From: Candidatus Omnitrophota bacterium
GTDB lineage: Bacteria > Omnitrophota > Gorgyraeia > Gygaellales > Profunditerraquicolaceae
Length of the DNA stretch: 64,000 nucleotides
Reading direction: 5' to 3'
Assembly (NCBI GenBank): GCA_025453395.1
Contig: JALOQK010000008.1
Span: 938-64,937 of the forward strand
The notes under the pieces were generated by a model. The model was given only the letters and a program-made list of their open reading frames with translations. It was not told where the DNA came from and made no database searches. A program made the translations under genes and the position numbers. Shown one piece after another: positions 331-17,607 of this stretch (position 1 is the first letter of the stretch; each line of letters opens with the position of its first letter).

Positions 331-361
331 AACAAAAAAACGCCCCGTAAGTTACAGGGCG
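331..361 (-). terminator. Rho-independent terminator downstream of pilC, separating it from the rRNA leader
   Basis: Hairpin cgccccgtaagttacagggcg (7 bp stem, 1 mismatch) followed on the minus strand by a U7 tract (rc of aaaaaaa at 334-340). Confidence 0.45.
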
Positions 362-537
362 CTTGATTTTACGCCTTAACTTAAGTTAAAATTAAATTTC
401 AGATGATTTTGTCAATATCGCTTTTATTTATTCTCACGATATATTTGACCCGTGAAGATTTTAAATATACATCTTGCAGGGTAAGTAAATATAACAGAAC
501 ATGCTTTAATTGTCAAGAAATTTTTTTTATTTTTTTC

Positions 538-1743
538 TTACCTGTTTATCATCTCCGTAAGCTGGAATATCGGCATAAACAAAGCCACTACTATGCCTCC
601 TATAATCCCGCCTAAGAATACAATGACTAAAGGCTCTATCATGCTTGTAAGCCCTGATACCGCAACATCAACCTGCTCATCATAAAAATCAGCGATCTTA
701 GAAAGCATCTTTTCCAACTGCCCTGTTTGCTCTCCTACGCTTATCATGCGGCAGACCATCGCAGGAAAAATCTTACTTTTAGACAAAGGCTTATATATCG
801 GCTCTCCCTCGCGCACCGCGTTGCGGCAATTAAGGATAGTTTCTTCTATGACCTTATTTCCGGAAGTTGACGCTACTATATCTAAAGCATTCAGAACCGG
901 AACGCCGCTTTTCATTAAGGTGGCGAAGGTGCGCGAAAATTTGGCCACTCCTACTTTGCGAAAAAGCTCACCCGCTACCGGCAGCCTTAATTTTTGATAA
1001 TCAATATTATATCTACCGCGGACAGTGGCGGCATAACGTTTAAAAATAAACCCGGCAACAAAAAACCCTCCTATAACAATAGGGAACCATTTCTTGAAAA
1101 TATCGCTTATCCCCACCAATATCCTTGTTGGTAGCGGCAATGTTCCGCCAAGGCTGTCAAATATACCCTTAAAGGTAGGCACTACCTTTATTAATAACAA
1201 GGAAGTAATCGCAAAGGCAACTATTAAAACTACAACCGGATAAATCATACTGGAGCGCACCTTTCGGCTTAAAGAAGCTGCCTTCTCAAGGTAAGAAGCT
1301 AATCTATCCAAAACCTGATCCAACATACCGGAAGTTTCTCCTGCCTTGGCCATACTGACGAAAAGATCAGAAAATATATTAGGGTGTTTTGCCAAGGCAT
1401 CGCAAAAACTCATCCCGCCCTCTATATCCTGCTGCACGCTGGAAACAACATTTCTTAAGACTGGCTGTTCGATTTGTTCTGCCAATATATTTAAAGACTG
1501 CACCAGTGGAATACCTGCGTCAATCATGGTGGCTAATTGCCGAGAAAATATAACAATATCATCTATGCCGACCTTTCCTGTTTTCTTGCGCACAGAAACA
1601 GCTACCTTGGACTGTTCAATAGCTATAACAAACAACTCCTGCTTATGCAGGATTTCGCTTGCTTCGGTCTCGCTCTTGGCCTCAACTATTCCCTTAATGG
1701 TCTGCCCGCTTTTGCCTTTGGCAATATAATTAAAGGACAACAT
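538..1743 (-). CDS. pilC: Type IV pilus assembly / T2SS platform protein PilC (GspF family)
   Basis: 401 aa. Two GspF repeats with three TM segments. N-terminus MLSFNYIAKGKSGQTIKG...ASEILHKQEL is typical of PilC. Adjacent to PilB genes. Confidence 0.9.
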   Translation of the reverse strand: MLSFNYIAKGKSGQTIKGIVEAKSETEASEILHKQELFVIAIEQSKVAVSVRKKTGKVGIDDIVIFSRQLATMIDAGIPLVQSLNILAEQIEQPVLRNVVSSVQQDIEGGMSFCDALAKHPNIFSDLFVSMAKAGETSGMLDQVLDRLASYLEKAASLSRKVRSSMIYPVVVLIVAFAITSLLLIKVVPTFKGIFDSLGGTLPLPTRILVGISDIFKKWFPIVIGGFFVAGFIFKRYAATVRGRYNIDYQKLRLPVAGELFRKVGVAKFSRTFATLMKSGVPVLNALDIVASTSGNKVIEETILNCRNAVREGEPIYKPLSKSKIFPAMVCRMISVGEQTGQLEKMLSKIADFYDEQVDVAVSGLTSMIEPLVIVFLGGIIGGIVVALFMPIFQLTEMINR

Positions 1744-1762: not shown

Positions 1763-2824
1763 TTATTCCAAATTCTCCACAATATTCAGAAATGCGCTTA
1801 CTACCTGAGGATCGAATTGAATACCGCTGTTATTTTTTATTTCTGAAACAGCTTCTTCTTTTGTCAGAGGAACCTTACGGTACGAACGCGGCGAACGCAT
1901 AGCCTCGTAGGAGTCCGCCAGATTAATGATCCTTGAGCCCAAACAAATCTCTTCCCTCTTAAGCCCCTTCGGATAGCCAGACCCGTCATAATGTTCATGG
2001 TGTTGGCGGATAAGCTCAATAACTTCTTTCAAGAAAGTAAGCGGCTCTAAGATCTGCGCGGCGGTTGATGGATGACGGCGCATTTCCTGCCATTCTTCGG
2101 GTGTTAATTCCGAAGGCTTAATTAAAATACTATCCTGAATGCCCACTTTTCCTAAATCATGCAGCTCGCATGCCTCTCTTATCATTTCTATTTCCCTGGC
2201 CGGCAATTGCATTTCTTCGGCGATGCTAACCGCGTATTTGGAAACAAGCTGGGAGTGGCTGTGCGTATAATGATCACGAGCGTCTATTACCTGTGCCAGG
2301 ACTTTTATCGTGCGCAAATATGTTGCGCGCAAATCCTCATAAAGATGAGTCAAATTCCGCGCCGAATCTTCTATTCTGCTGGCTAAAAGCGCATTTTGTT
2401 TTTGCAAAGAATTATTTTGTTCCTGAAGATTATGCATGGACTTCCTGTGTGAAACAAGCATGGAATGTAATACAAAAGCCCTCTCAATGGAAAAAGAGGC
2501 TTTCTTATAATCTATGGGATTCTCTATACAATCAAATACCCCTAATGCCTGCAGATCATCCTGGGTAAAATTGACCGGGTTCTGGCTAAAAACTAAAATA
2601 CAGCAATCCGGATCATTCTTCCTTATCTCTTTTAAAAACCAATCAAAAACAGGAATATCCTCATTGACAATCACCACATCAAAAGCGTTATCTTTGAATT
2701 TTTCCAAAGCCAGTCCGATATCGCTTTCAAGATAAACCATCCAGCCTTCCTGATCTTTCTGTTTTTCTTTAAGCCGCGCCATCAAGGAATCGTTATTATC
2801 AACACCTACTACTAATATCTTCAT
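1763..2824 (-). CDS. Response regulator with HD-GYP c-di-GMP phosphodiesterase domain
   Basis: N-terminal CheY-like receiver (MKILVVGVD...). C-terminal HD motif (ELHDLGKVGI) and HHEHYDGSGYPKGL GYP motif. Confidence 0.85.
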   Translation of the reverse strand: MKILVVGVDNNDSLMARLKEKQKDQEGWMVYLESDIGLALEKFKDNAFDVVIVNEDIPVFDWFLKEIRKNDPDCCILVFSQNPVNFTQDDLQALGVFDCIENPIDYKKASFSIERAFVLHSMLVSHRKSMHNLQEQNNSLQKQNALLASRIEDSARNLTHLYEDLRATYLRTIKVLAQVIDARDHYTHSHSQLVSKYAVSIAEEMQLPAREIEMIREACELHDLGKVGIQDSILIKPSELTPEEWQEMRRHPSTAAQILEPLTFLKEVIELIRQHHEHYDGSGYPKGLKREEICLGSRIINLADSYEAMRSPRSYRKVPLTKEEAVSEIKNNSGIQFDPQVVSAFLNIVENLE

Positions 2825-2834
2825 TTTTTGTATC

Positions 2835-4550
2835 CTATTCCTCAGTAGTGATCCTGACCGCCTCTTCCAAAGAAGTAACCCCGTCTCTTACTTTTATAAA
2901 AGCATCATCTCGGAGGGTAAGCATCCCACAATTTTTTATGCAATAATCTTTGATTTCATCAATAGAGCGCTTTTTGGTAATCATCTCTCTTATCTTATCA
3001 TCAATAAGAGAAGTCTCCAGGATTGCTATTCTACCATAAAAACCCGTGTCATTACAATACTTACACCCATAGGAATTATACACCGGCATTCTTTCATCAA
3101 GGCCTAAGTTGCGCAAAACATCTTTGGGCACATCTATCTGTTTGCGGCACTTAAGACACAGTTTTCTGCACAGTCTCTGAGCGCACAACATCACCAGGCT
3201 TGATGAGACTAAAAACGGCTCAACCCCCATATCCAAAAGGCGGCTTATGCTTGATATCGCATCGTTTGTATGCAGCGTTGATAAAACAAGCTGTCCTGTA
3301 AGAGCGGCCTTAATGGCAATATCCGCGGTTTCAAAATCGCGGATCTCCCCGATCATGATTACATCCGGGCTCTGCCTTAATATCGCGCGCAATCCCGAAG
3401 CAAAATCAAGTTTAATCTCATGCCTGACCTGCACCTGCGTGATGCCTTCAATCTGATACTCTACGGGATCCTCAACTGTTACAATATTTTTCTCAGGGGT
3501 ATTTAACTGGTTTAAAACGGAATATAAAGTCGTGGATTTTCCTGAACCCGTGGGGCCGGTAACTAAGATCATGCCAAAAGGCTTGGCAATGGCTTGCTTA
3601 AAAACCTGGGTCGGCCTCTCTGAGAATCCAAGCTTATCCAAACCTATGGAAAGATTGGTCTTATCAAGCGCGCGCAAAACAAATTTTTGCCCGAAAGTAG
3701 TAGGCAGGCTTGAAACACGAAAATCTACTTCCCTGTTTTCAAAACGCACCTTGAACCTGCCATCTTGAGGGATACGGCTTTCGGTAATATCAAGATTCGA
3801 TATAATCTTAAGCCGCGCCAAGACCGCGTTCTGGTTATTCCGAGGGATTTTAAACGCCTCCAATAAAGACCCGTCTATGCGGTAACGCACTCTCAAGCAA
3901 TCGTATTCCGGCTCTAAATGAATGTCTGAAGCCCTGCGGCGCAATGCTTCGCTGAGCATTAAATCCACCATTTTGACAATCGGCGGCTTCTGGCTGTCTT
4001 TAACCGCGCTTGATAATTCTATCTGCTCGCTTCCGATCATCTCTACTGAGTCTTTGGCGTCTTGCGACATGGCTTCGCCAACAGTTTCATTAAAGATATT
4101 CTGGAAACTGGCGGGCTTAGGGGCATAATGAGCGTCGATGGCGTGGACAATTTCTTCTCTGGGGCTTAAGACTATATCAATATCACAACCAGTGCATGAT
4201 TTTAAATCATCCAAGGCAAAAACATTTAACGGATCGGCAATGGCCACGGTCAGGGTATTGCCTATGCGCGACAATGGGACAATCAAAGACTGCCTGGCCA
4301 TATGTTCAGGTATCAACTGTACAATATTAGGGTCAAATTTATATTTAGCTAAATGAAGCGTAGGCACATAAAGGTGCTGTGAAAAAACCGCCAATAGATC
4401 CTCTTCTGAAATAAATCCCTCGTCGATTAAGACTTTACGCAAAGAAGCCTGTTTTGTTTTCTGAATAGCCAAGGCCTTATCCAATTGCTCTTGGCTTAAA
4501 AGCTTGTTGGTAAGTAAAATATTGATAATATTATCTTTCAGCGTGGGCAT
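2835..4550 (-). CDS. pilB: Type IV pilus assembly ATPase PilB (GspE family) with MshEN-type N-domain
   Basis: 571 aa. T2SSE_N domain with both 24-aa MshEN motifs (LLSQEQLDKALAIQ / SLRKVLIDEGFISEEDLLAVFSQ). Walker A GPTGSGKST, Asp and His boxes, C-terminal tetracysteine CxxC...CxxC. Confidence 0.9.
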   Translation of the reverse strand: MPTLKDNIINILLTNKLLSQEQLDKALAIQKTKQASLRKVLIDEGFISEEDLLAVFSQHLYVPTLHLAKYKFDPNIVQLIPEHMARQSLIVPLSRIGNTLTVAIADPLNVFALDDLKSCTGCDIDIVLSPREEIVHAIDAHYAPKPASFQNIFNETVGEAMSQDAKDSVEMIGSEQIELSSAVKDSQKPPIVKMVDLMLSEALRRRASDIHLEPEYDCLRVRYRIDGSLLEAFKIPRNNQNAVLARLKIISNLDITESRIPQDGRFKVRFENREVDFRVSSLPTTFGQKFVLRALDKTNLSIGLDKLGFSERPTQVFKQAIAKPFGMILVTGPTGSGKSTTLYSVLNQLNTPEKNIVTVEDPVEYQIEGITQVQVRHEIKLDFASGLRAILRQSPDVIMIGEIRDFETADIAIKAALTGQLVLSTLHTNDAISSISRLLDMGVEPFLVSSSLVMLCAQRLCRKLCLKCRKQIDVPKDVLRNLGLDERMPVYNSYGCKYCNDTGFYGRIAILETSLIDDKIREMITKKRSIDEIKDYCIKNCGMLTLRDDAFIKVRDGVTSLEEAVRITTEE

Positions 4551-6293: not shown

Positions 6294-6737
6294 TTATTCA
6301 CTGTAATATTTGGAAATGGCCTGTTTTATATCTGAAGAAGTAGAAACAAAGGTCTGGATATTGCATCCGGTCAGCATTTCCACATCCTCGATAGCGTGGA
6401 CATTCAAAGGATTAGACATGGCTAAGGTCAAATTATTGCCTATTTTGTCTATCGGGATAAGCACGTATTGCTTGGCAACCCGGCACGGAACAATATTGGC
6501 TACATCAGAGCTTATTTCATAATTACCAAGCGGCAAATACGGAAAACCATACTGCGCGGTTAAGGATTGGGCGATATCTTCTTCCTTGGCAAACCCCAGC
6601 TCCACCATGATCTCTCCGATAAGGCCGCCTCTTTCTTTCTGGCAGTTCAACGCCTTATCAAGCTGGTCTGCGGATACAAGCCCGCGGTCCACCAACAATT
6701 CACCTAATTGCTTATTAATTATTCTTTTTATCGGCAT
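6294..6737 (-). CDS. Stand-alone MshEN (T2SSE_N) domain protein, putative c-di-GMP receptor
   Basis: 147 aa. Both tandem 24-residue MshEN motifs with a 5-aa spacer: QLGELLVDRGLVSADQLDKALNCQ-KERGG-LIGEIMVELGFAKEEDIAQSLTAQ. No ATPase domain. Confidence 0.75.
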   Translation of the reverse strand: MPIKRIINKQLGELLVDRGLVSADQLDKALNCQKERGGLIGEIMVELGFAKEEDIAQSLTAQYGFPYLPLGNYEISSDVANIVPCRVAKQYVLIPIDKIGNNLTLAMSNPLNVHAIEDVEMLTGCNIQTFVSTSSDIKQAISKYYSE

Positions 6738-6740
6738 AAT

Positions 6741-8162
6741 CTAAATAGAAATCCTATTTCCCCCTTGGGCCTTGGCCATTTTTAAAGATTCCCTTGCCTT
6801 TAAGAAAAGCTCATCCGAGCTTACTCCGTCAATGGGGTTTTCGCTTACCGCCCCGCTTATAGTCAGATGCATATCTTGCGCTTGGGGATTACCTAAGGAA
6901 ACTTCTACCTTCTTTCTTACTTCTTCAGCCATGCGTATGGAAGCGCGCTTATTCTTATCTTGAAGCACTACAGCGAATTCGTTATCGCCTGTGCGCGCCG
7001 CGCGGTCAGACTCTGAAATAAAATCCCGGATTATGTTGGCTGTTTTCTTCAAAGCCGCTTCCGTCTGCAAAGCCCCTAATTTATGGCTATAATTCTGAAA
7101 ATTATCTATATTAAATATAACTAAAGAACACGGTTTCTGATAAACAATAGCCCTTTTGATTTCTTCTTGAAGACGGCTTTTAATAAAACTTTCATTATAC
7201 AAGCCGGTAAGGTTGTCTTTAATCTCAAGCTCATCCACCCAACCGGAAAGCATATCATTTTCAACCGCGATAGAAAGCTGCTTGGCAAAAATATCCAGTA
7301 ATTCCACATCTTCTTCATGATAACAAAAATCTTCCCTGTTATTTCCAATTACAAGAATACTGCTTAACGAACCTCTGACAAAAATCGGCAGGCTTAAAAA
7401 ATTCTTCAGCCTAAATCTTTCATAAATAAGTTCGCGGTCTTTTTCCTGGATATAATTGGCTTTATCTACTGTAAGCGGCCTTGTTAAATTGGAGATTTTC
7501 GGAAAAATATCATCGCCCTTGATTACTTTTACCTTAGAAAGATACTGGGCATTAGCTCCATCAACAGCCTTCATGAAAAAATCACCATTGTCGGACTCAC
7601 GCGACAAAATAAAAGCAACATCAGAGTTTGCCAAGGTGCGGGCTTTCTGCACCGAAAGAAGCAATATCTCTTCAAGCTTTAAACCTTGCGAAACAAGCGA
7701 ACTTATCTGAAGAAGGCTGGAAAGCACAAGCACTCTTTTCTGTATTTCCAGATTTATCTTGGTAGTTCTTTCGCTATATCCCTTAAGCTCATCCATATTG
7801 CTGCGGATCTTAGAAGTAAGCTGATTTAAAGCATCCCCCAGGTATCCTACTTCATCACCTTTGCTGGTCTTAACGATATGCTGAAAATCCCCCTTGGCGA
7901 TAATCCGGGCTTGAGCGCTTATTGAAGAAACTCTGTCAAAGACCTCTTTAATGATAAAAAACCCCGTAACAGCTACAATAACACTTATTGTCAATACCCA
8001 CATAATCTGTGGACTTACCGTTAAATTGGTGCTAGGAAGAAAATAATTCATAATAACATAACCTAACACCAAAAAAGGCAATACAAGCATAAGATAAAAG
8101 ACCATCCTCAGCTTGTATTTAAGATTGCCCGGACTTAAAAGGACATTTATCTGTTTATTCAT
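6741..8162 (-). CDS. Membrane sensor with HAMP-GAF and a degenerate GGDEF domain
   Basis: 473 aa. Two N-terminal TM helices and a HAMP-like linker. GGDEF-fold C-terminus in which GG(D/E)EF is replaced by GDNEF (RAARTGDNEFAVVL) and the upstream DxD by NIDNF. Confidence 0.8.
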   Translation of the reverse strand: MNKQINVLLSPGNLKYKLRMVFYLMLVLPFLVLGYVIMNYFLPSTNLTVSPQIMWVLTISVIVAVTGFFIIKEVFDRVSSISAQARIIAKGDFQHIVKTSKGDEVGYLGDALNQLTSKIRSNMDELKGYSERTTKINLEIQKRVLVLSSLLQISSLVSQGLKLEEILLLSVQKARTLANSDVAFILSRESDNGDFFMKAVDGANAQYLSKVKVIKGDDIFPKISNLTRPLTVDKANYIQEKDRELIYERFRLKNFLSLPIFVRGSLSSILVIGNNREDFCYHEEDVELLDIFAKQLSIAVENDMLSGWVDELEIKDNLTGLYNESFIKSRLQEEIKRAIVYQKPCSLVIFNIDNFQNYSHKLGALQTEAALKKTANIIRDFISESDRAARTGDNEFAVVLQDKNKRASIRMAEEVRKKVEVSLGNPQAQDMHLTISGAVSENPIDGVSSDELFLKARESLKMAKAQGGNRISI

Positions 8163-8188: not shown

Positions 8189-8217
8189 ATTATACCTTGT
8201 ATCTTATTATATTGCAA
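8189..8217 (-). promoter_or_regulatory. Sigma70-type promoter for the GGDEF-like gene
   Basis: Minus strand reads TTGCAA-N17-TATAAT (rc of 8212-8217 and 8189-8194), about 25 nt upstream of the ATG at 8162. Confidence 0.4.
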
Positions 8218-8223
8218 TATATT

Positions 8224-9909
8224 TTAGAAATTGGCGCATTCCTGTGCCAAAGATTCCTTAGGAATGCCTGTATCAATGAAATCCCAAGGCAGCCTATCTT
8301 CTATTTTGCCTGCCAACAGGTAGTCTTGCGGGTTGATTCCAGAGCTAATAAAAGCATCCTGCCAAAGCTTAAAATTAAACTGGTCGTCCCAGGCCTGAAA
8401 ACGCCCGCCCTGGCTAAAGACATGTTCAATGACCCCGCCTAAACGCCTATCGCCTCTGGAGAATACCGCCTCAATGAAACTCATATGCGGATCATGAAAA
8501 TTAAGCCTTAAACTTTTGTGCTTAGAGGCTTTATCTCTTAGGATCTTTTGCTTAGCAAACATCGCCTCTATGTTATCCATAGCCTGCCACTGAAAACAGG
8601 TATGCGGCTTGGGGATCATCGTATTAACGCTTATATTTATCTGCGCCCGGGGCAAACCGATTTTTCTTCTTAATTCAGAAACCTTTACCGAAAAATCAAT
8701 TATGCCCTCTAAATCCTCTTGCGTTTCAGAAGGCACCCCTGACATAAAATATAATTTTACCCTCTGATAACCTGCCGAATACGCTTTTTCCATGGCATCA
8801 AAGAAAACATCCTCATCAAATTCTTTATTCAGCACCCGGCGCAGCCTTTGGCTGCCTGCTTCAGGGGCAAAAGTAAGCCCGGTCTTTTTCACCTTAGAAA
8901 GAATTCCCGCGATATCGCCGGTTAAGTCTTTGGGTTTTATGGAAGGAAGCGACACGCTTACTGCCTTTTGGCTAAAACAAGCGAATAAATCTTTGAGTAA
9001 TAAATCTACCCGCGGATAGTCGCTGACGCAAAGCCCGGCCAAAGAAATATCCTCATACCCGGTAGAAGAATATATTTCCTGCGCCGTAGAGATAAGTTTG
9101 TCTTTGCTTCTAAAACGCAAAGGATGATAAATTCTATTGGCCTGGCAGAAACGGCACTTATAAGGGCAGCCGCGCATTACCTCAAGCATCATGCGGTCAT
9201 GGATAATCTCGATATAAGGCACAAGCCACTTCACAGGGAAAAAGCTACTGTCCAGATCCTTGATAAAACGCTTTTTTATCTTCTTGGCCGGCAAAGAAGG
9301 CACATAAACGCCTTCTATATGGGAAAACTCTTTAAGCAATTCTTCTTTAAGCAGACTGCCTGATTTATAATCATCTTTGAGCCTTGCATAAAGCCCCACT
9401 ATCTCCGGGAGGGCCTCTTCAGCTTCCCCAATAAGAAAAAGATCAAAGAAATCACGCATCGGTTCAGGGTTAAAACAACAAACACCCCCTGCGATGACAA
9501 GGGGAAAATCTTTATTGCGCTCTACAGATCTCAAAGGGATATTGCCTAAATCAAGCATGCCCAGCACATTCACATAACCCAATTCATATCCTAAAGAAAA
9601 CCCCGCGAAATCAAAATCTTTAAGCGGCCGGGCTTCTTCAAGAGAAGAAAACAAGAGGTTATTCGCGCGCAAAATTTGCTCCATATCCGCAGCAGGGGCA
9701 AAAAACCTTTGGCAGCAAACCCCATCCAGCTGATTTAACAAGCCATAAATTATCCTGATACCTAAATTACTCATCCCAACTTCATACAAATCCGGGAAAC
9801 ATAAAGCAAAGTTTACCTTGTTATCCTCAAATTTCTTTGAGGAAACATTCCATTCTCCCCCGGTATAACGCGCCGGCTTTCTTACCTGTAATAAATAATC
9901 TTCAGTCAT
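8224..9909 (-). CDS. Radical SAM protein, TIGR03960-like (B12-binding-like N-domain plus radical SAM core)
   Basis: 561 aa. CxxxCxxC cluster in EVMRGCPYKCRFCQA. N-terminus MTEDYLLQVRKPARYTGGEW typical of the family. Sits upstream of rodA as in many genomes. Confidence 0.8.
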   Translation of the reverse strand: MTEDYLLQVRKPARYTGGEWNVSSKKFEDNKVNFALCFPDLYEVGMSNLGIRIIYGLLNQLDGVCCQRFFAPAADMEQILRANNLLFSSLEEARPLKDFDFAGFSLGYELGYVNVLGMLDLGNIPLRSVERNKDFPLVIAGGVCCFNPEPMRDFFDLFLIGEAEEALPEIVGLYARLKDDYKSGSLLKEELLKEFSHIEGVYVPSLPAKKIKKRFIKDLDSSFFPVKWLVPYIEIIHDRMMLEVMRGCPYKCRFCQANRIYHPLRFRSKDKLISTAQEIYSSTGYEDISLAGLCVSDYPRVDLLLKDLFACFSQKAVSVSLPSIKPKDLTGDIAGILSKVKKTGLTFAPEAGSQRLRRVLNKEFDEDVFFDAMEKAYSAGYQRVKLYFMSGVPSETQEDLEGIIDFSVKVSELRRKIGLPRAQINISVNTMIPKPHTCFQWQAMDNIEAMFAKQKILRDKASKHKSLRLNFHDPHMSFIEAVFSRGDRRLGGVIEHVFSQGGRFQAWDDQFNFKLWQDAFISSGINPQDYLLAGKIEDRLPWDFIDTGIPKESLAQECANF

Positions 9910-11117: not shown

Positions 11118-12835
11118 ATAAGCCCTTCCTCAAACATGCGCGTAATAATTTCTTTCGCTATTAAGCAGGCATAATAGCCTGCCTTGCCGTTTTCCAAGAA
11201 AACACAAACAGCAAATTTAGGGCGATCAGATGGGAAAAAACCGGCAAACCATCCGTGCGCAAAAGATCCAGTTACCTGCGCGGAACCTGTTTTGCCTGAT
11301 ACCTTAACTGGCAAATCCGCCAAAATACTGGCTGTACCAGCTGGATCTGATACGGCCTTACGCATGCCATCACTTATGTAATTAACTATCTCTTGCTTGG
11401 AAATAACTTTTATTTTCTTGCCAGAATGCCCCCCTGCGTTATATCCAGCGGCATATTTAGTAACATGCGGAACAACCAAAAAACCACCATTAGCAAAACA
11501 GGCAGTAACTCTTAGTATTTGTATAGGCGTGGTCAATAAATCACCCTGGCCAATAGAAAAATTGGCCGTATCCCCATCATACCATTTTTGATCCCGGCTT
11601 GATTTCTTCCAGGCTACTGATGGCACAAACCCGGATACCTCATATGGAAGATCTATCCCTGTGGTTTTTGCCAAACCAAATCTCAGAGAATAATCTGTTA
11701 TTAGTTGCGGGCCCAAGGCTAAGCCTGTATGATAAAAAAATACATCGCAGGAACCGGCTATGGCCTGTATTAAATCTTGACGGTTATGCGTATCCCAGCA
11801 CTTAAACTGCCGCCTGCCTATTGTTAGAAATCCAGGGCAAATAAAAGAAGTCCCGAGATTTATTTTCTTTTTTTCCAGGCCCGCAACAGCCACAATTAAC
11901 TTAAATATAGAACCAGGCGCATACGAAGCGCTTATCGCGCGATTCAAAAAAGGCGAATGCTTGTCGTTTAAAACCTCTTCAATAGAAGAAGAGCCTTTGA
12001 TAAAAATACCCGGGTCAAAATCCGGGAAACTTGCTAACGCCAGGATTTCCCCTGTATCAGGCTGCATAATAATAACCGCGCCTTTTTGGTTTTGCATCGC
12101 CTGTTGGACGATTTGCTGGATCTTAATATCTAAGGTTAGGCCCACATCGCCACCATTAACAGCAGGCTTATATCCTATTACTCTGACTAATTTTCCGACA
12201 TGATCTACTTCCGCGGATATCGCCCCATCGCCTTGGCGTAAAATATAATCATATTTTTCTTCTGCCCCGCCAAATCCCACAATATCTGCCGGCTTATAAC
12301 CGTAATCGGATAATTTATAAAGCCGCCACTGGTCTATTTGGCTTAGATACCCTAACACATGGCATGCCAGATTGCCATACGGATAATAGCGTAATGGATG
12401 CGGCTGTATGATAATTCCGGGTGAATCAAATTTAGCCTGCTCAAGGGCGATAAGCTTTTTGTTATCAGAAATCGTATCCAAAACAACTGGCAGCGATTCA
12501 GAGATATAACGCGACCTGAATCTCTTCCTAAGCTTCTGCTCATCCTGCTCTAATACAAAGGCGATTTTCCTTAACGCCCTTTCAAGTTCATCTTTATTTT
12601 GCCCTGAAACCATCACATCAAAAGCCAGGTAATTGTCCGCAATAGGATTTCCGTTACGGTCCAAGATCCTTCCTCTTGCGCCTTCTTGAGGCAGAACCCG
12701 GATGCAGTTCTTTTGGCTGAGCAAGCTGAATTTGGCCCCCTGGATTATTGCAAGATTAAAAACCCCAAAGCCCAAAACAACAAAGCTGGCGATAAAAACC
12801 GATATTACAAGTTTTGTCCTGTTCGGATAAGTCAT
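11114..12835 (-). CDS. mrdA: Penicillin-binding protein 2 (elongasome transpeptidase)
   Basis: 573 aa. N-terminal TM. SxxK (SIFK) and KTG (KTGSAQ) motifs. Overlaps mreD and rodA by 4 nt each. Confidence 0.9.
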   Translation of the reverse strand: MTYPNRTKLVISVFIASFVVLGFGVFNLAIIQGAKFSLLSQKNCIRVLPQEGARGRILDRNGNPIADNYLAFDVMVSGQNKDELERALRKIAFVLEQDEQKLRKRFRSRYISESLPVVLDTISDNKKLIALEQAKFDSPGIIIQPHPLRYYPYGNLACHVLGYLSQIDQWRLYKLSDYGYKPADIVGFGGAEEKYDYILRQGDGAISAEVDHVGKLVRVIGYKPAVNGGDVGLTLDIKIQQIVQQAMQNQKGAVIIMQPDTGEILALASFPDFDPGIFIKGSSSIEEVLNDKHSPFLNRAISASYAPGSIFKLIVAVAGLEKKKINLGTSFICPGFLTIGRRQFKCWDTHNRQDLIQAIAGSCDVFFYHTGLALGPQLITDYSLRFGLAKTTGIDLPYEVSGFVPSVAWKKSSRDQKWYDGDTANFSIGQGDLLTTPIQILRVTACFANGGFLVVPHVTKYAAGYNAGGHSGKKIKVISKQEIVNYISDGMRKAVSDPAGTASILADLPVKVSGKTGSAQVTGSFAHGWFAGFFPSDRPKFAVCVFLENGKAGYYACLIAKEIITRMFEEGLI

Positions 12836-13311
12836 TTTATGGATGGATTAATTATATATTCCCAAAGGATATAAGAACCTGCTGCGGAAAAAATAACACC
12901 AACGGCCAATATCCTTAAGAATACACCCCAAGATACGCTTAAGCCGTTTGTCAGCATCAGCCCGTGGATAATCAATGAATAAAACAAAAAACCTGCCGCC
13001 ACCACAGAAATCTTTACAAAGATATTTTCTATTTCTATTTTTCTGGCAACAAAAGAAAATAAAAGGCTGAATACCGGAAATAAAATACAATTTAACCCAA
13101 CCGAACCCGAGATAAAAATATCCTTAGCCAAACCGCAAAACAGGCCGATAATTAAAACCCTCGCGATATTATAACAAAACAATAAACTAAACAACGCGTT
13201 AATCAAAAACAAAAGATCCGGCTTAAGATATAATAACCGCATATCGTTTATAATGCCGGCCTGAAAATACGCGGTTAATAATATAAGCCCCGCTATAAAA
13301 ATACTGCTCAT
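12832..13311 (-). CDS. mreD: Rod shape-determining protein MreD
   Basis: 159 aa polytopic membrane protein between mreC and mrdA. Confidence 0.75.
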   Translation of the reverse strand: MSSIFIAGLILLTAYFQAGIINDMRLLYLKPDLLFLINALFSLLFCYNIARVLIIGLFCGLAKDIFISGSVGLNCILFPVFSLLFSFVARKIEIENIFVKISVVAAGFLFYSLIIHGLMLTNGLSVSWGVFLRILAVGVIFSAAGSYILWEYIINPSIK

Positions 13312-16551: not shown

Positions 16552-17607
16552 TTATTTTTTTATGACCTTATCACCCTCTTGGACTACTTCTTTTAATCCT
16601 GCGGAAGCAAAACCTGCCGCGGACATAGAATCATGCACTTTTTCTACGTTAACTTCTCCCAAAAGCTTATTGTTGCGGGAAACCTGAAAAGTGTCCCCGG
16701 CTTTCACGCCGTCTTTTTCGCCGATATTCAACACCACAAAATCATACTCACGGTTTACTACCGCGATGCTGCCTTCGGGATTAAGCAAGGCCTGCCGGGC
16801 AAGCTCTTTTGCTTTTTGCGCCTCTTTTGCAGCCTGGGCTTTCGCTTCAACCTCTTGCTGATTATCATACTTCTTGGTTGTGCGCTGCATCTCTTTGCGC
16901 ATCTTCTCTTCATTCTTAAGTTTTAACTCGTCTTGTTTTTTCTGGGCAAGCTGCTGGTCTTTCTTTATTTTCTCTTCCAGCTTAAGCTTTGCCTCTTGGG
17001 CTTTCTGTTTTTCCCTGGCTTCCCTGGCTTCTTCTTTTGTGTTTTTCTTGACAGAAACTGCTTGCGGCTTATCTTCAGGGGAAACAACGATAGTGCCTAA
17101 CTGCACGCCTTTAAATTTTTCTTCCAACTGGCGGGATTTTTCTTCCAAGTCTTTAATTTTTACCTCTAAATCTATTTTCTTATTTTCCAGTTCCGCCAAA
17201 CGGGCTTGGATGGTTTTATTTTCTTCCTGCGCGCGGGAAAGCTGTTTGGCCAAATCATCTTTAGAGACAACCTGCTTATTCAGCTCTGCCTTTACTACGC
17301 CAATCTGATCCATGGCATCTTGCTTTGCCGCTTTCTCATTTTCCAATTCAGTATTTAAAGCAGAAACTTTTTTCTCCGTGGAGCTTAATTTATCCTCTAG
17401 GCTGAAGATCGTTTTCTTTGAATCTTCTAATTTCATTTTGGTCAGCTTCTGCTCAGCCCTGACATCTTCAAGCTGTTGCTGGATTTGGGCCTTAGCTAAT
17501 TTTTCCTGATTAAGAAGATAATATAGGCCGCCTGATAAAGCCAAAGATATAATGATAAGAAGTGTTAATATGATAATCGCGACTTTACCTTTTTTATTCA
17601 TGGCCAT
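16552..17607 (-). CDS. Membrane-anchored coiled-coil protein with C-terminal beta-rich domain (unknown function)
   Basis: 351 aa. One N-terminal TM (VAIIILTLLIIISLALSGGLYYLL), about 230 aa of K/E/Q-rich heptad coiled coil, then a C-terminal domain YDFVVLNIGEKDGVKAGDTFQV. Confidence 0.6.
   Translation of the reverse strand: MAMNKKGKVAIIILTLLIIISLALSGGLYYLLNQEKLAKAQIQQQLEDVRAEQKLTKMKLEDSKKTIFSLEDKLSSTEKKVSALNTELENEKAAKQDAMDQIGVVKAELNKQVVSKDDLAKQLSRAQEENKTIQARLAELENKKIDLEVKIKDLEEKSRQLEEKFKGVQLGTIVVSPEDKPQAVSVKKNTKEEAREAREKQKAQEAKLKLEEKIKKDQQLAQKKQDELKLKNEEKMRKEMQRTTKKYDNQQEVEAKAQAAKEAQKAKELARQALLNPEGSIAVVNREYDFVVLNIGEKDGVKAGDTFQVSRNNKLLGEVNVEKVHDSMSAAGFASAGLKEVVQEGDKVIKK

Follow-up and report, generated by a model that had tools for sequence, protein, structure and literature searches.

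The 64,000-nucleotide (nt) stretch analysed here (the window; positions 938 to 64,937 of contig JALOQK010000008.1, from a Candidatus Omnitrophota bacterium) carries a block of pilus motor genes, headed by a gene for a membrane protein whose GGDEF domain has lost its catalytic motifs. The plus-strand frame at this gene, positions 6741-8162, is riddled with stop codons; the gene is read from the minus strand. We use GGDEF* as shorthand for its 473-amino-acid (aa) product, in which a transmembrane part, HAMP, a coiled coil, a GAF domain and a degenerate GGDEF domain follow one another. A public protein with 100% identity to GGDEF* is named 'MAG: diguanylate cyclase [Candidatus Omnitrophica bacterium]', where MAG stands for metagenome-assembled genome.

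Architecture and lost motifs of GGDEF*

The gene and the features assigned within it are the following, together with the evidence used for each of them.

6741-8162, minus strand: degenerate-GGDEF gene (GGDEF*), a 473-aa ATG-to-stop open reading frame (ORF), from translation and Pfam domains
7938-8123, minus strand: membrane hairpin, helices aa 14-41 and aa 51 to about 75, from AlphaFold secondary structure and hydrophobic sequence
7683-7937, minus strand: HAMP (aa 76-125) running into a coiled coil (aa 126-160), from Pfam, AlphaFold and conservation
7263-7676, minus strand: GAF domain (aa 163-300), the presumed cytoplasmic input, from Pfam PF01590
6753-7220, minus strand: GGDEF-fold domain (aa 315-470), catalytically degenerate, from Pfam, Foldseek and conservation
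7098-7112, minus strand: NIDNF (aa 351-355) replacing D-x-D-x-F, from direct translation and alignments to solved cyclases
7005-7016, minus strand: SESD replacing the RxxD inhibitory site (I-site), from direct translation and alignments to solved cyclases
6975-6989, minus strand: GDNEF (aa 392-396) replacing GG(D/E)EF, from direct translation and alignments to 3ign, 9t28 and 6zxm

The last domain belongs to the GGDEF superfamily at the level of both fold and profile. It matched PF00990 over profile positions 3-161 of 161 with 95.2 bits (E 4.5e-27, cutoff 23.8), and TIGR00254 with 93.2 bits against a cutoff of 37.4. An AlphaFold2 model of GGDEF*, built on 46 homologues, had a mean predicted local distance difference test score (pLDDT) of 81 and placed in order the hairpin, a HAMP helix-loop-helix, a helix unbroken to residue 159, the GAF domain, a linker helix (283-311) and the GGDEF fold. 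When the last domain of the model was compared by Foldseek with the isolated GGDEF domains of WspR, DosC and GcbC, TM-scores of 0.85-0.88 were obtained, so that the fold is intact; with the whole protein, the matches were cyclases built as sensor, coiled coil and GGDEF, namely PadC (5llw) and Dcsbis (4zmu).

The input side of the protein is less sharply defined by profiles. The HAMP match (PF00672, aa 76-120) reached 21.9 bits, under the cutoff of 25; PF00672 is recorded for most homologues, and the model shows a helix (51-89), a loop (90-103) and a second helix (104-159) in this region. Since the two membrane helices are linked in the model by a loop of only about nine residues, GGDEF* is predicted to be without a periplasmic sensor domain. 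The GAF domain scored 38.4 bits against a cutoff of 22.4 and covered profile positions 2-133 of 133, and its phmmer matches in the PDB were weak and to generic GAF domains only.

A preliminary description of this gene, made from the sequence alone, had read GDNEF and NIDNF as degenerate forms of the GGDEF signature and of the DxD region. Both readings were borne out by translation and by alignments to three solved cyclases, and the losses proved broader than had been noted. To fix the register, GGDEF* was compared by phmmer with all PDB sequences, which gave 48 matches, and the alignments to 3ign, WspR (9t28) and DgcR (6zxm) were inspected. In these alignments ARTGDNEF lies under (G/A/S)R(Y/F)GGEEF (including GRYGGEEF), FNIDNF under FDIDHF, IDVDYF and IDIDKF, SH under ND, GALQTE under GHLAGD, SESD under RQSD, RSSD and RKSD, and AKAQGGN under AKESGRN; the other 45 GGDEF matches span the same residues of GGDEF*. 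Further, a regular-expression search over the whole protein detected no GG[DE]EF, [GAS]G[DE]EF, G[GAS][DE][DE]F or DxD, so that no alternative register can restore the motifs and the degenerate reading stands.

The metal ligands of cyclases are the initial Asp of DxD and the third GGDEF residue. The RxxD motif lies five residues upstream of the GGDEF hairpin. In PleD numbering, the following positions are replaced in GGDEF*.

D327, metal ligand: Asn (N351)
E370, metal ligand: Asn (N394)
G369, second Gly of the hairpin: Asp
N335, guanine contact: Ser (Ser359)
D344, guanine contact: Glu (Glu368)
R359, I-site Arg: Ser
R446, phosphate contact, the Arg of the C-terminal GRN: Gly (Gly468)

Ser359 and Glu368 sit under the N and the D of 'vNDtyGHlaGD'. 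The equivalents of D329, F331, R366, E371, F372 and K442 are retained, the last of them as K464; in PleD, K442 and R446 belong to the C-terminal helix and act on the phosphate and the transition state.

Judged from these alignments, GGDEF* is without the features that define an active cyclase and an I-site receptor, that is, the hairpin, the metal ligands, the guanine contacts and RxxD. Membership of a named cyclase family was also rejected, as the NCBIfam equivalogs PleD, DgcA, SiaD and DgcR all scored far under their cutoffs, the best of them, DgcA (NF041606), with 84 bits against 370. GGDEF* is very probably not a cyclase. The preliminary description had already called it a probable non-cyclase, a judgement strengthened by what has been replaced, namely the two metal ligands, the hairpin's second Gly and the two guanine contacts, a pattern kept throughout the family.

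Degeneracy and conservation across Omnitrophota

The 120 closest homologues of GGDEF* are proteins of about 470 aa, 49-60% identical to it and from Omnitrophota where named. All 120, as well as 38 of 38 syntenic orthologues from other Omnitrophota species, are degenerate. Among the 120, the hairpin reads G-D-N-E-F in 79 and G-D-D-E-F in 40, and the position of the second Gly (G369) is Asp in 118. The first Asp of DxD is retained in 45 and replaced by Asn in 72. At the guanine contacts, the D344 position is Glu in all 120, and His, Gln, Tyr, Arg and other residues are found at the N335 position. The position of the I-site Arg is occupied by Thr or Ser in 112 and by Arg in none, and the R446 position is Lys or Arg in 108, unlike Gly468 of the window protein. 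Among the syntenic orthologues, RxxD is kept (as REID) in those from Velamenicoccia and Gygaella.

To place these proteins in a broader frame, a hidden Markov model (HMM) search of 1.8 billion cluster representatives was carried out, and it recovered a wider family of 440-490-aa proteins. In representatives of this family at 50% identity the hairpin is nearly free (GNHEF, EDNEF, SDTEF, GGNEF and a few GGDEF), and what persists is a near-invariant ENPxDG loop (ENP(I/L)DG), a loop reading (E)KNK(R/K) and the Glu at the D344 position. Canonical multidomain cyclases appeared only further down the list of the HMM search.

When one genome per GTDB species was scanned, full-length syntenic matches came from Omnitrophota only, including the complete genome of Candidatus Velamenicoccus archaeovorus LiM; a few of the matches are MAGs labelled 'uncultured Planctomycetia', with the same synteny. 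Each of the approximately 40 Omnitrophota species genomes returned has a syntenic orthologue of GGDEF*. For comparison, 45 GGDEF domains from the other loci of the scan, all but one locus belonging to phyla other than Omnitrophota, were aligned, and about 40 of them were fully canonical in DxDxFK, ND, GHxxGD, RxxD and GG(D/E)EF. Because the degeneracy is shared by homologues and syntenic orthologues while the neighbours outside Omnitrophota are canonical, these comparisons indicate that it is a derived, shared character of an Omnitrophota family and not the decay of a single gene.

Recent pseudogenisation or a sequencing error was considered as well and is ruled out by the intact ORF, by the presence of the pattern in all relatives and by the high conservation of the domain. 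In the searchable literature we found no description of this family.

The distribution of conservation along the protein was determined over 158 orthologues. In the GGDEF domain, conservation reaches 90% or more at 49 of 159 positions, compared with 10 of 120 in the GAF domain, the least conserved of the domains. The coiled coil (aa 126-160) has the lowest mean entropy of all segments (0.74 bits) and forms, together with the linker between GAF and GGDEF, the most conserved part of the protein. This pattern is, as far as sequences can tell, the one expected of a signal-transducing dimer whose output domain keeps a specific job. Within the former pocket, conservation over the same set was 96% at D329, 97% at F331, 97% for Glu at D344, 100% at R366, 98% at F372 and 94% at K442.

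The two former metal-ligand positions do not vary independently. In the 120 closest homologues the pair is Asn/Asn in 67, Asp/Asp in 35 and mixed in 15. We counted 30 and 22 changes at the two positions, 10 of them on shared branches, compared with an expectation of 2.1 (hypergeometric P about 5e-6), in a rough test that combined a neighbour-joining tree, built without the two columns, with Fitch parsimony. Such paired switching suggests that the two side chains face one common site, which would be kept with or without a metal. It also means that a ligand-binding role for the old pocket stays alive as a rival to the explanation that we favour below.

Operon context and neighbouring genes

On the minus strand of the window, the order of genes is mreB, mreC, a 159-aa ORF in the mreD position, pbp2, rodA and a gene for a TIGR03960 radical S-adenosylmethionine (SAM) protein, followed after a gap of 61 base pairs (bp) by GGDEF*. 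Downstream, on the same strand, come genes for a protein consisting of an MshEN domain only, for two PilB-type ATPases (PilB1 and PilB2), for a receiver-like plus HD-GYP protein and for PilC.

8189-8217, minus strand: sigma-70-like promoter candidate TTGCAA-17-TATAAT in the gap between the radical SAM gene and GGDEF*, from a promoter scan, weak alone
6294-6737, minus strand: stand-alone MshEN/GSPII protein of 147 aa (the MshEN-only protein), starting 3 nt past the GGDEF* stop, from Pfam MshEN and NF053729
4555-6261, minus strand: PilB-type assembly ATPase 1 (MshEN plus T2SSE), from Pfam; TIGR02538 619 bits, cutoff 676
2835-4550, minus strand: PilB-type assembly ATPase 2 (MshEN plus T2SSE), from Pfam; TIGR02538 627 bits, cutoff 676
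1763-2824, minus strand: receiver-like domain plus HD-GYP phosphodiesterase domain, from Pfam (HD_5 133 bits; receiver domain, REC, 23.9, below cutoff)
538-1743, minus strand: PilC platform protein (T2SSF), from Pfam (T2SSF 221.6 bits over two stretches)

The same gene order was found in three contigs by exact protein look-up and in about 40 loci of different Omnitrophota species, and it holds down to 31-35% identity of GGDEF*, including in the complete Velamenicoccus archaeovorus LiM genome. In every locus that is long enough, the block from mreB, mreC, mreD, pbp2 and rodA to the radical SAM gene precedes GGDEF* on the same strand. The spacing on the two sides of the gene was then compared. 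In 36 of 36 loci, 49 nt or more separate the radical SAM gene from GGDEF* (median 79). The distance from GGDEF* to the MshEN-only gene has a median of 18 nt; it does not exceed 30 nt in 24 of 39 loci, and in the window it is 3 nt. Promoter-like sites occur in the region at a chance-level count, so the candidate at 8189-8217 is by itself a hint only, one supported by the minimum gap kept in all 36 orthologous loci.

Departures from the common order were seen in a few lineages. In one Omnitrophota sub-clade, GGDEF* and the MshEN-only gene are separated by an additional gene of about 1.1 kb; in locus L026 (11425-12489) this gene encodes a PilT/PilU-family retraction ATPase (TIGR01420, 483 bits), and L019 has a near-identical ORF. 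In L022, L025, L039 and L040, where only the gap was measured, 1.1-1.2 kb separate GGDEF* from the MshEN-only gene. The order is altered in L058, with a short GGDEF* followed by the radical SAM gene, and GGDEF* there still adjoins the pil block. Taken together, GGDEF* behaves as the leading gene of a pilus-motor operon into which parts of the type associated with c-di-GMP (cyclic diguanosine monophosphate) have been drawn repeatedly.

In Candidatus Gygaella obscura and a relative (L030, 15265-19901; L037, 15273-19903), the HD-GYP slot is taken by a 1395-aa protein with an N-terminal near-canonical GGDEF domain (DLDNFKGIND, GHLAGD and AGDEF, with N and D kept), an AAA_16/STAND ATPase and HEAT repeats. 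This gene is followed by another one for an MshEN-only protein.

Three of the neighbours of GGDEF* contain an MshEN domain, and all three pass NF053729, a model of the c-di-GMP motif with a cutoff of 38 (62.9 for the MshEN-only protein, 48.5 for PilB1 and 43.9 for PilB2). The best PDB match of the MshEN-only protein was the N-terminal GSPII-A domain of PilF. The MshEN consensus RLGxx(L/V/I)(L/V/I)xxG(L/V/I)(L/V/I)xxxxLxxxLxxQ is present twice, with 24 residues each (PMC12002112). In Thermus PilF, Arg1, Gly3 and Gln24 are critical, and Ser at the motif-II Arg position of GSPII-A abolishes binding (PMC12002112). The motifs of the three window proteins read as follows.

MshEN-only protein: motif I QLG..Q, motif II LIG..Q; Arg1 gone in both (Gln, Leu)
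PilB1: motif I RLK..Q, motif II RLS..Q; Gly3 gone in both
PilB2: motif I NII..Q, motif II SLR..Q; Arg1 and Gly3 both gone

In other words, the domain shared with V. cholerae MshE and T. thermophilus PilF differs from them in that the MshEN-only protein is without both Arg, PilB1 without both Gly3 and PilB2 without both features, and these deviations are conserved across about 40 species. The two PilB-type ATPases are full-length and in tandem, each with a Walker A and a tetracysteine motif, and the pair is conserved across the phylum.

In the HD-GYP protein the HD and HHExxDGxGYP motifs are intact, and it aligns with V-cGAP3 (5z7c, E 4.9e-39) and PmGH (4mcw). Its receiver-like domain reads VIVNEDIP, with Asn at the expected phospho-Asp. 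Since the best solved relative, 5z7c, is a phosphodiesterase specific for 3'3'-cyclic GMP-AMP (3'3'-cGAMP), the substrate need not be c-di-GMP. An HD-GYP match was found in 21 of the orthologous loci where the position could be assessed, and in none of the others that reach PilC.

We also asked whether the phylum might be without c-di-GMP signalling, a possibility ruled out by the intact HD-GYP domain of the operon and by a canonical GGEEF motif in a giant Omnitrophota ORF (L061), as well as by the AGDEF protein of Gygaella and by published GGDEF and PilZ genes near giant genes. In the window itself, 20 further large ORFs were scanned and proved to be housekeeping genes, with no other c-di-GMP genes among them.

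Several other observations were made in the surroundings of the operon. The TIGR03960 gene (8224-9909, minus strand) encodes a B12-binding radical SAM protein (621 bits) and lies between rodA and the pilus operon in 36 of the Omnitrophota loci examined. The conserved 159-aa ORF in the MreD position (12832-13311, minus strand) matches no Pfam family, and its orthologue in L001 is called MreD. Likewise, a 351-aa ORF between genes for a MurA-like protein and a pseudouridine synthase (16552-17607, minus strand) has no Pfam family in the window or in L001-L003.

At the other end of the operon, positions 1-46 of the window (minus strand) are the 5' end of a 16S ribosomal RNA (rRNA) gene, 97.8% identical to the 16S start downstream of pilC in L001; in L001 and L010, 16S, two tRNA genes and 23S follow directly after pilC. 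The pilus-motor operon is thus immediately upstream of an rRNA operon in the lineage of the window, an adjacency that probably explains why the contig ends nearby. In the interval from the pilC stop to the 16S start, positions 338-516 (minus strand) contain a sigma-70-like promoter close to consensus, TTGACA-17-TG-TATATT, with an extended -10 and 11 of 12 matches, and about 120 nt past it a strong terminator-like hairpin with a 12-bp stem and a T-run. The stretch folds better than shuffled sequence (z = -2.8), matches no Rfam family and could be an rRNA leader/promoter region or a small RNA.

A probable role of GGDEF* in pilus-motor control

Its place in the operon makes it rather probable that GGDEF* controls the pilus motors, a link that rests on synteny. 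The preliminary description had proposed that signals sensed at the membrane or by GAF are coupled to the adjacent pilus motor genes; the conserved synteny in about 40 species and the tight abutment of the genes speak for this proposal, as an association only. As to the mode of action, our best overall explanation, to which we give about even chances and which is drawn from analogy, is a pseudoenzyme that serves as sensor/adaptor and acts on the pilus motors by protein contact.

GGDEF* would then be a membrane-anchored, probably dimeric pseudo-cyclase, forming a parallel dimer as its active relatives do. A signal at the GAF domain or the membrane part would shift the register of the coiled coil, and this shift would reposition the two dead GGDEF domains. 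With catalysis gone, the conserved GGDEF* surface would bind or release a partner, for which the most plausible candidates are the MshEN-only protein, co-translated with GGDEF*, or the MshEN domains that the PilB proteins carry, and partner binding would gate the recruitment or the activity of the motors at the membrane. We name the MshEN-only protein or the PilB MshEN domains as the specific partner only tentatively, again by analogy.

A further and rather doubtful extension is that GGDEF* and the Arg-less MshEN-only protein form an obligate, Omnitrophota-specific pair, working either as a composite ligand site or as a switch independent of c-di-GMP. In the composite version, the KNK(R/K) loop of GGDEF* would supply the arginines missing from the MshEN-only protein; as a switch, the pair would decide which PilB motor engages the PilC platform.

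A functional parallel is the FimX-PilZ-PilB module, which controls type IV pilus assembly in Xanthomonas and Pseudomonas. In Xanthomonas, FimX, a degenerate GGDEF-EAL protein, forms a complex with a small PilZ adaptor, which belongs to a c-di-GMP receptor superfamily yet does not bind the ligand, and with the N1 domain of PilB (reviewed in PMC11656802). In that module PilB is partnered by a large signalling protein of several domains, its GGDEF domain dead, and here GGDEF* lies next to the MshEN-only gene and two PilB genes; the non-binding PilZ adaptor has its counterpart in an MshEN-only protein without the key Arg residues. The GGDEF domain of FimX is, moreover, a detectable sequence relative of GGDEF* (3hva, E 2.8e-8, phmmer). 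However, FimX is a soluble REC-PAS-GGDEF*-EAL* protein that senses c-di-GMP through its EAL domain, whereas the window protein is a membrane-anchored HAMP-GAF-GGDEF* protein in which Pfam and NCBIfam profile searches found no EAL domain, hence not a FimX but a functional analogue only. The adaptor, too, would be MshEN/GSPII and not PilZ, and there are two PilB paralogues.

In architecture, GGDEF* resembles PelD of Pseudomonas aeruginosa. PelD has a membrane anchor, a GAF domain and a degenerate GGDEF domain and is encoded within the operon of the machine it controls, and GGDEF* shares both the three parts and the placement of the gene. PelD differs in that its intact RxxD I-site binds c-di-GMP, where GGDEF* has SESD, in the absence of HAMP, in a GGDEF domain far more diverged than that of GGDEF* (95 bits to Pfam) and in its output, a polysaccharide synthase instead of a pilus motor.

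Among predatory or pilus-motile bacteria, CdgA (Bd3125) of Bdellovibrio is a degenerate GGDEF protein linked to type IV pilus-dependent behaviour. The same is true of SgmT of Myxococcus (PMC3509222). In contrast to GGDEF*, both bind c-di-GMP at the I-site, and they have other architectures and are not in a pilB operon. The best sequence and structure matches of GGDEF* are active cyclases (Dcsbis/PA2771, 4zmu; PadC, 5llw; WspR; DgcR; DgcA, NF041606), which share with it the sensor, the helical linker and the GGDEF fold, and control of the position of the GGDEF pair through helix register is probably inherited from them. They have canonical DxD, N, D, RxxD and GG(D/E)EF, none of which is intact in the window protein.

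Several findings weigh against the sensor/adaptor explanation. The conserved pocket residues (94-100%), the invariant Glu at D344 and the co-varying metal-ligand pair suggest that the former active-site pocket has kept some importance, as would be expected of a ligand-binding role more than of a pure scaffold. GGDEF* also evolves faster than its proposed partners, with identities of 31-57% compared to 54-80% between species for the MshEN-only protein. Further, the rod-shape genes upstream are equally conserved in synteny, so that linkage alone does not single out pili.

The pocket findings lead to the strongest rival, which we regard as unlikely: GGDEF* would be a receptor for a nucleotide, be it guanosine triphosphate (GTP), pGpG, c-di-GMP in product mode or another, bound in a remodelled active site, and occupancy would set the output instead of, or besides, GAF. 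The conservation of pocket residues in 158 orthologues, with Lys or Arg at R446 in most, agrees with such a receptor, the joint switching of the metal-ligand positions implies one functional site, and about 30% of the orthologues (Asp/Asp) could still bind Mg2+. The recognition surfaces, however, argue in the opposite direction, since both the base-recognition Asn (H, Q, Y, R, S, T; entropy 2.4 bits) and the phosphate-contact K332 (2.5 bits) fall on hypervariable positions, Asp has replaced the second hairpin Gly in 89% of orthologues, more distant family members have a nearly random hairpin and the window protein is of the Asn/Asn form with Gly in place of R446.

Reception at the I-site, as in PelD, PopA, CdgA and SgmT, would fit the PelD-like architecture, and we consider it very unlikely for the window protein and likelier for the RxxD-bearing Velamenicoccia orthologues. 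RxxD is kept (REID, RPID) in Velamenicoccia, in Gygaella and in some remote family members, and the invariant, family-specific KNK(R/K) and ENPxDG loops would lie, from fold topology, at that end of the sheet where the I-site is. In the window protein the motif is SESD, none of its 120 closest homologues has the Arg, and the equivalent of PleD R390 is Glu or variable. In characterised proteins, mutation of the RxxD Arg abolishes I-site binding. The preliminary description had offered a c-di-GMP/GTP-binding receptor as one alternative to a cyclase, and in its known forms this proposal fares poorly, given the absent I-site Arg and the hypervariable guanine-binding Asn position; canonical reception of c-di-GMP or GTP is, on present alignments, disfavoured.

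That GGDEF* might still be an active nucleotidyl cyclase, either a non-canonical diguanylate cyclase or one with another product, is barely credible. The public annotation, the retained fold, E371-equivalent and K442 and the presence of both carboxylates in some orthologues (DIDNF with GDDEF) are in its favour; N351 and N394 are amides, however, the hairpin Gly is Asp, the guanine contacts and R446 have been lost, the scores for NCBIfam cyclase equivalogs all stay far from the cutoffs and the unconserved hairpin of the wider family is incompatible with a conserved catalytic centre.

Finally, GGDEF* could serve cell-envelope or rod-shape control together with the upstream mreBCD-pbp2-rodA-radical SAM genes, its adjacency to pil genes being conserved order only. 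This is quite improbable, although the upstream block precedes GGDEF* on the same strand wherever a locus is long enough and no terminator is predicted between the radical SAM gene and GGDEF*. The gap on that side never falls below 49 nt (median 79) while GGDEF* abuts the MshEN-only gene, one clade has the PilT gene inserted directly downstream of GGDEF*, and in L058 GGDEF* stays beside the pil block despite the reordering.

The sensor/adaptor explanation thus remains the one we prefer, and parts of the picture are new. These are a TM-HAMP-GAF-GGDEF* family (TM, transmembrane) with neither known nucleotide site, its phylum-wide position as leader of a dual-PilB operon with an Arg-less MshEN-only protein, and the paired Asp/Asn switching of the old metal site. 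Inactive GGDEF regulators, including pilus-linked ones, are already known, so that the surprise for specialists in c-di-GMP is limited; for that field, GGDEF* is a clean example of a GGDEF domain without both known nucleotide sites and yet strongly selected, and the natural series of Asp/Asp and Asn/Asn forms lends itself to probing what the old metal site still does. If the obligate pair is real, the repeated flips from Asp/Asp to Asn/Asn would mark lineages that keep or lose a metal-dependent ligand.

The family comprises hundreds of sequences publicly named 'diguanylate cyclase', a name that is almost certainly wrong and that would inflate counts of c-di-GMP synthases in Omnitrophota. Members of this phylum are uncultured ultra-small bacteria, proposed to live as predators or parasites that use type IVa pili for attachment to other cells and for preying on them (PMC10066038). 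Papers on Omnitrophota, including PMC10066038, discuss type IVa pili and the GGDEF domains of giant proteins, and not the GGDEF* gene. As the head of a pilus motor operon, GGDEF* is the natural candidate for a sensor that governs when the cell produces pili, and the pair with the MshEN-only protein, if true, would be a new mode of pilus-motor control in these organisms. The finding is useful for annotation and provides a lead on pilus control in an uncultured predatory phylum.

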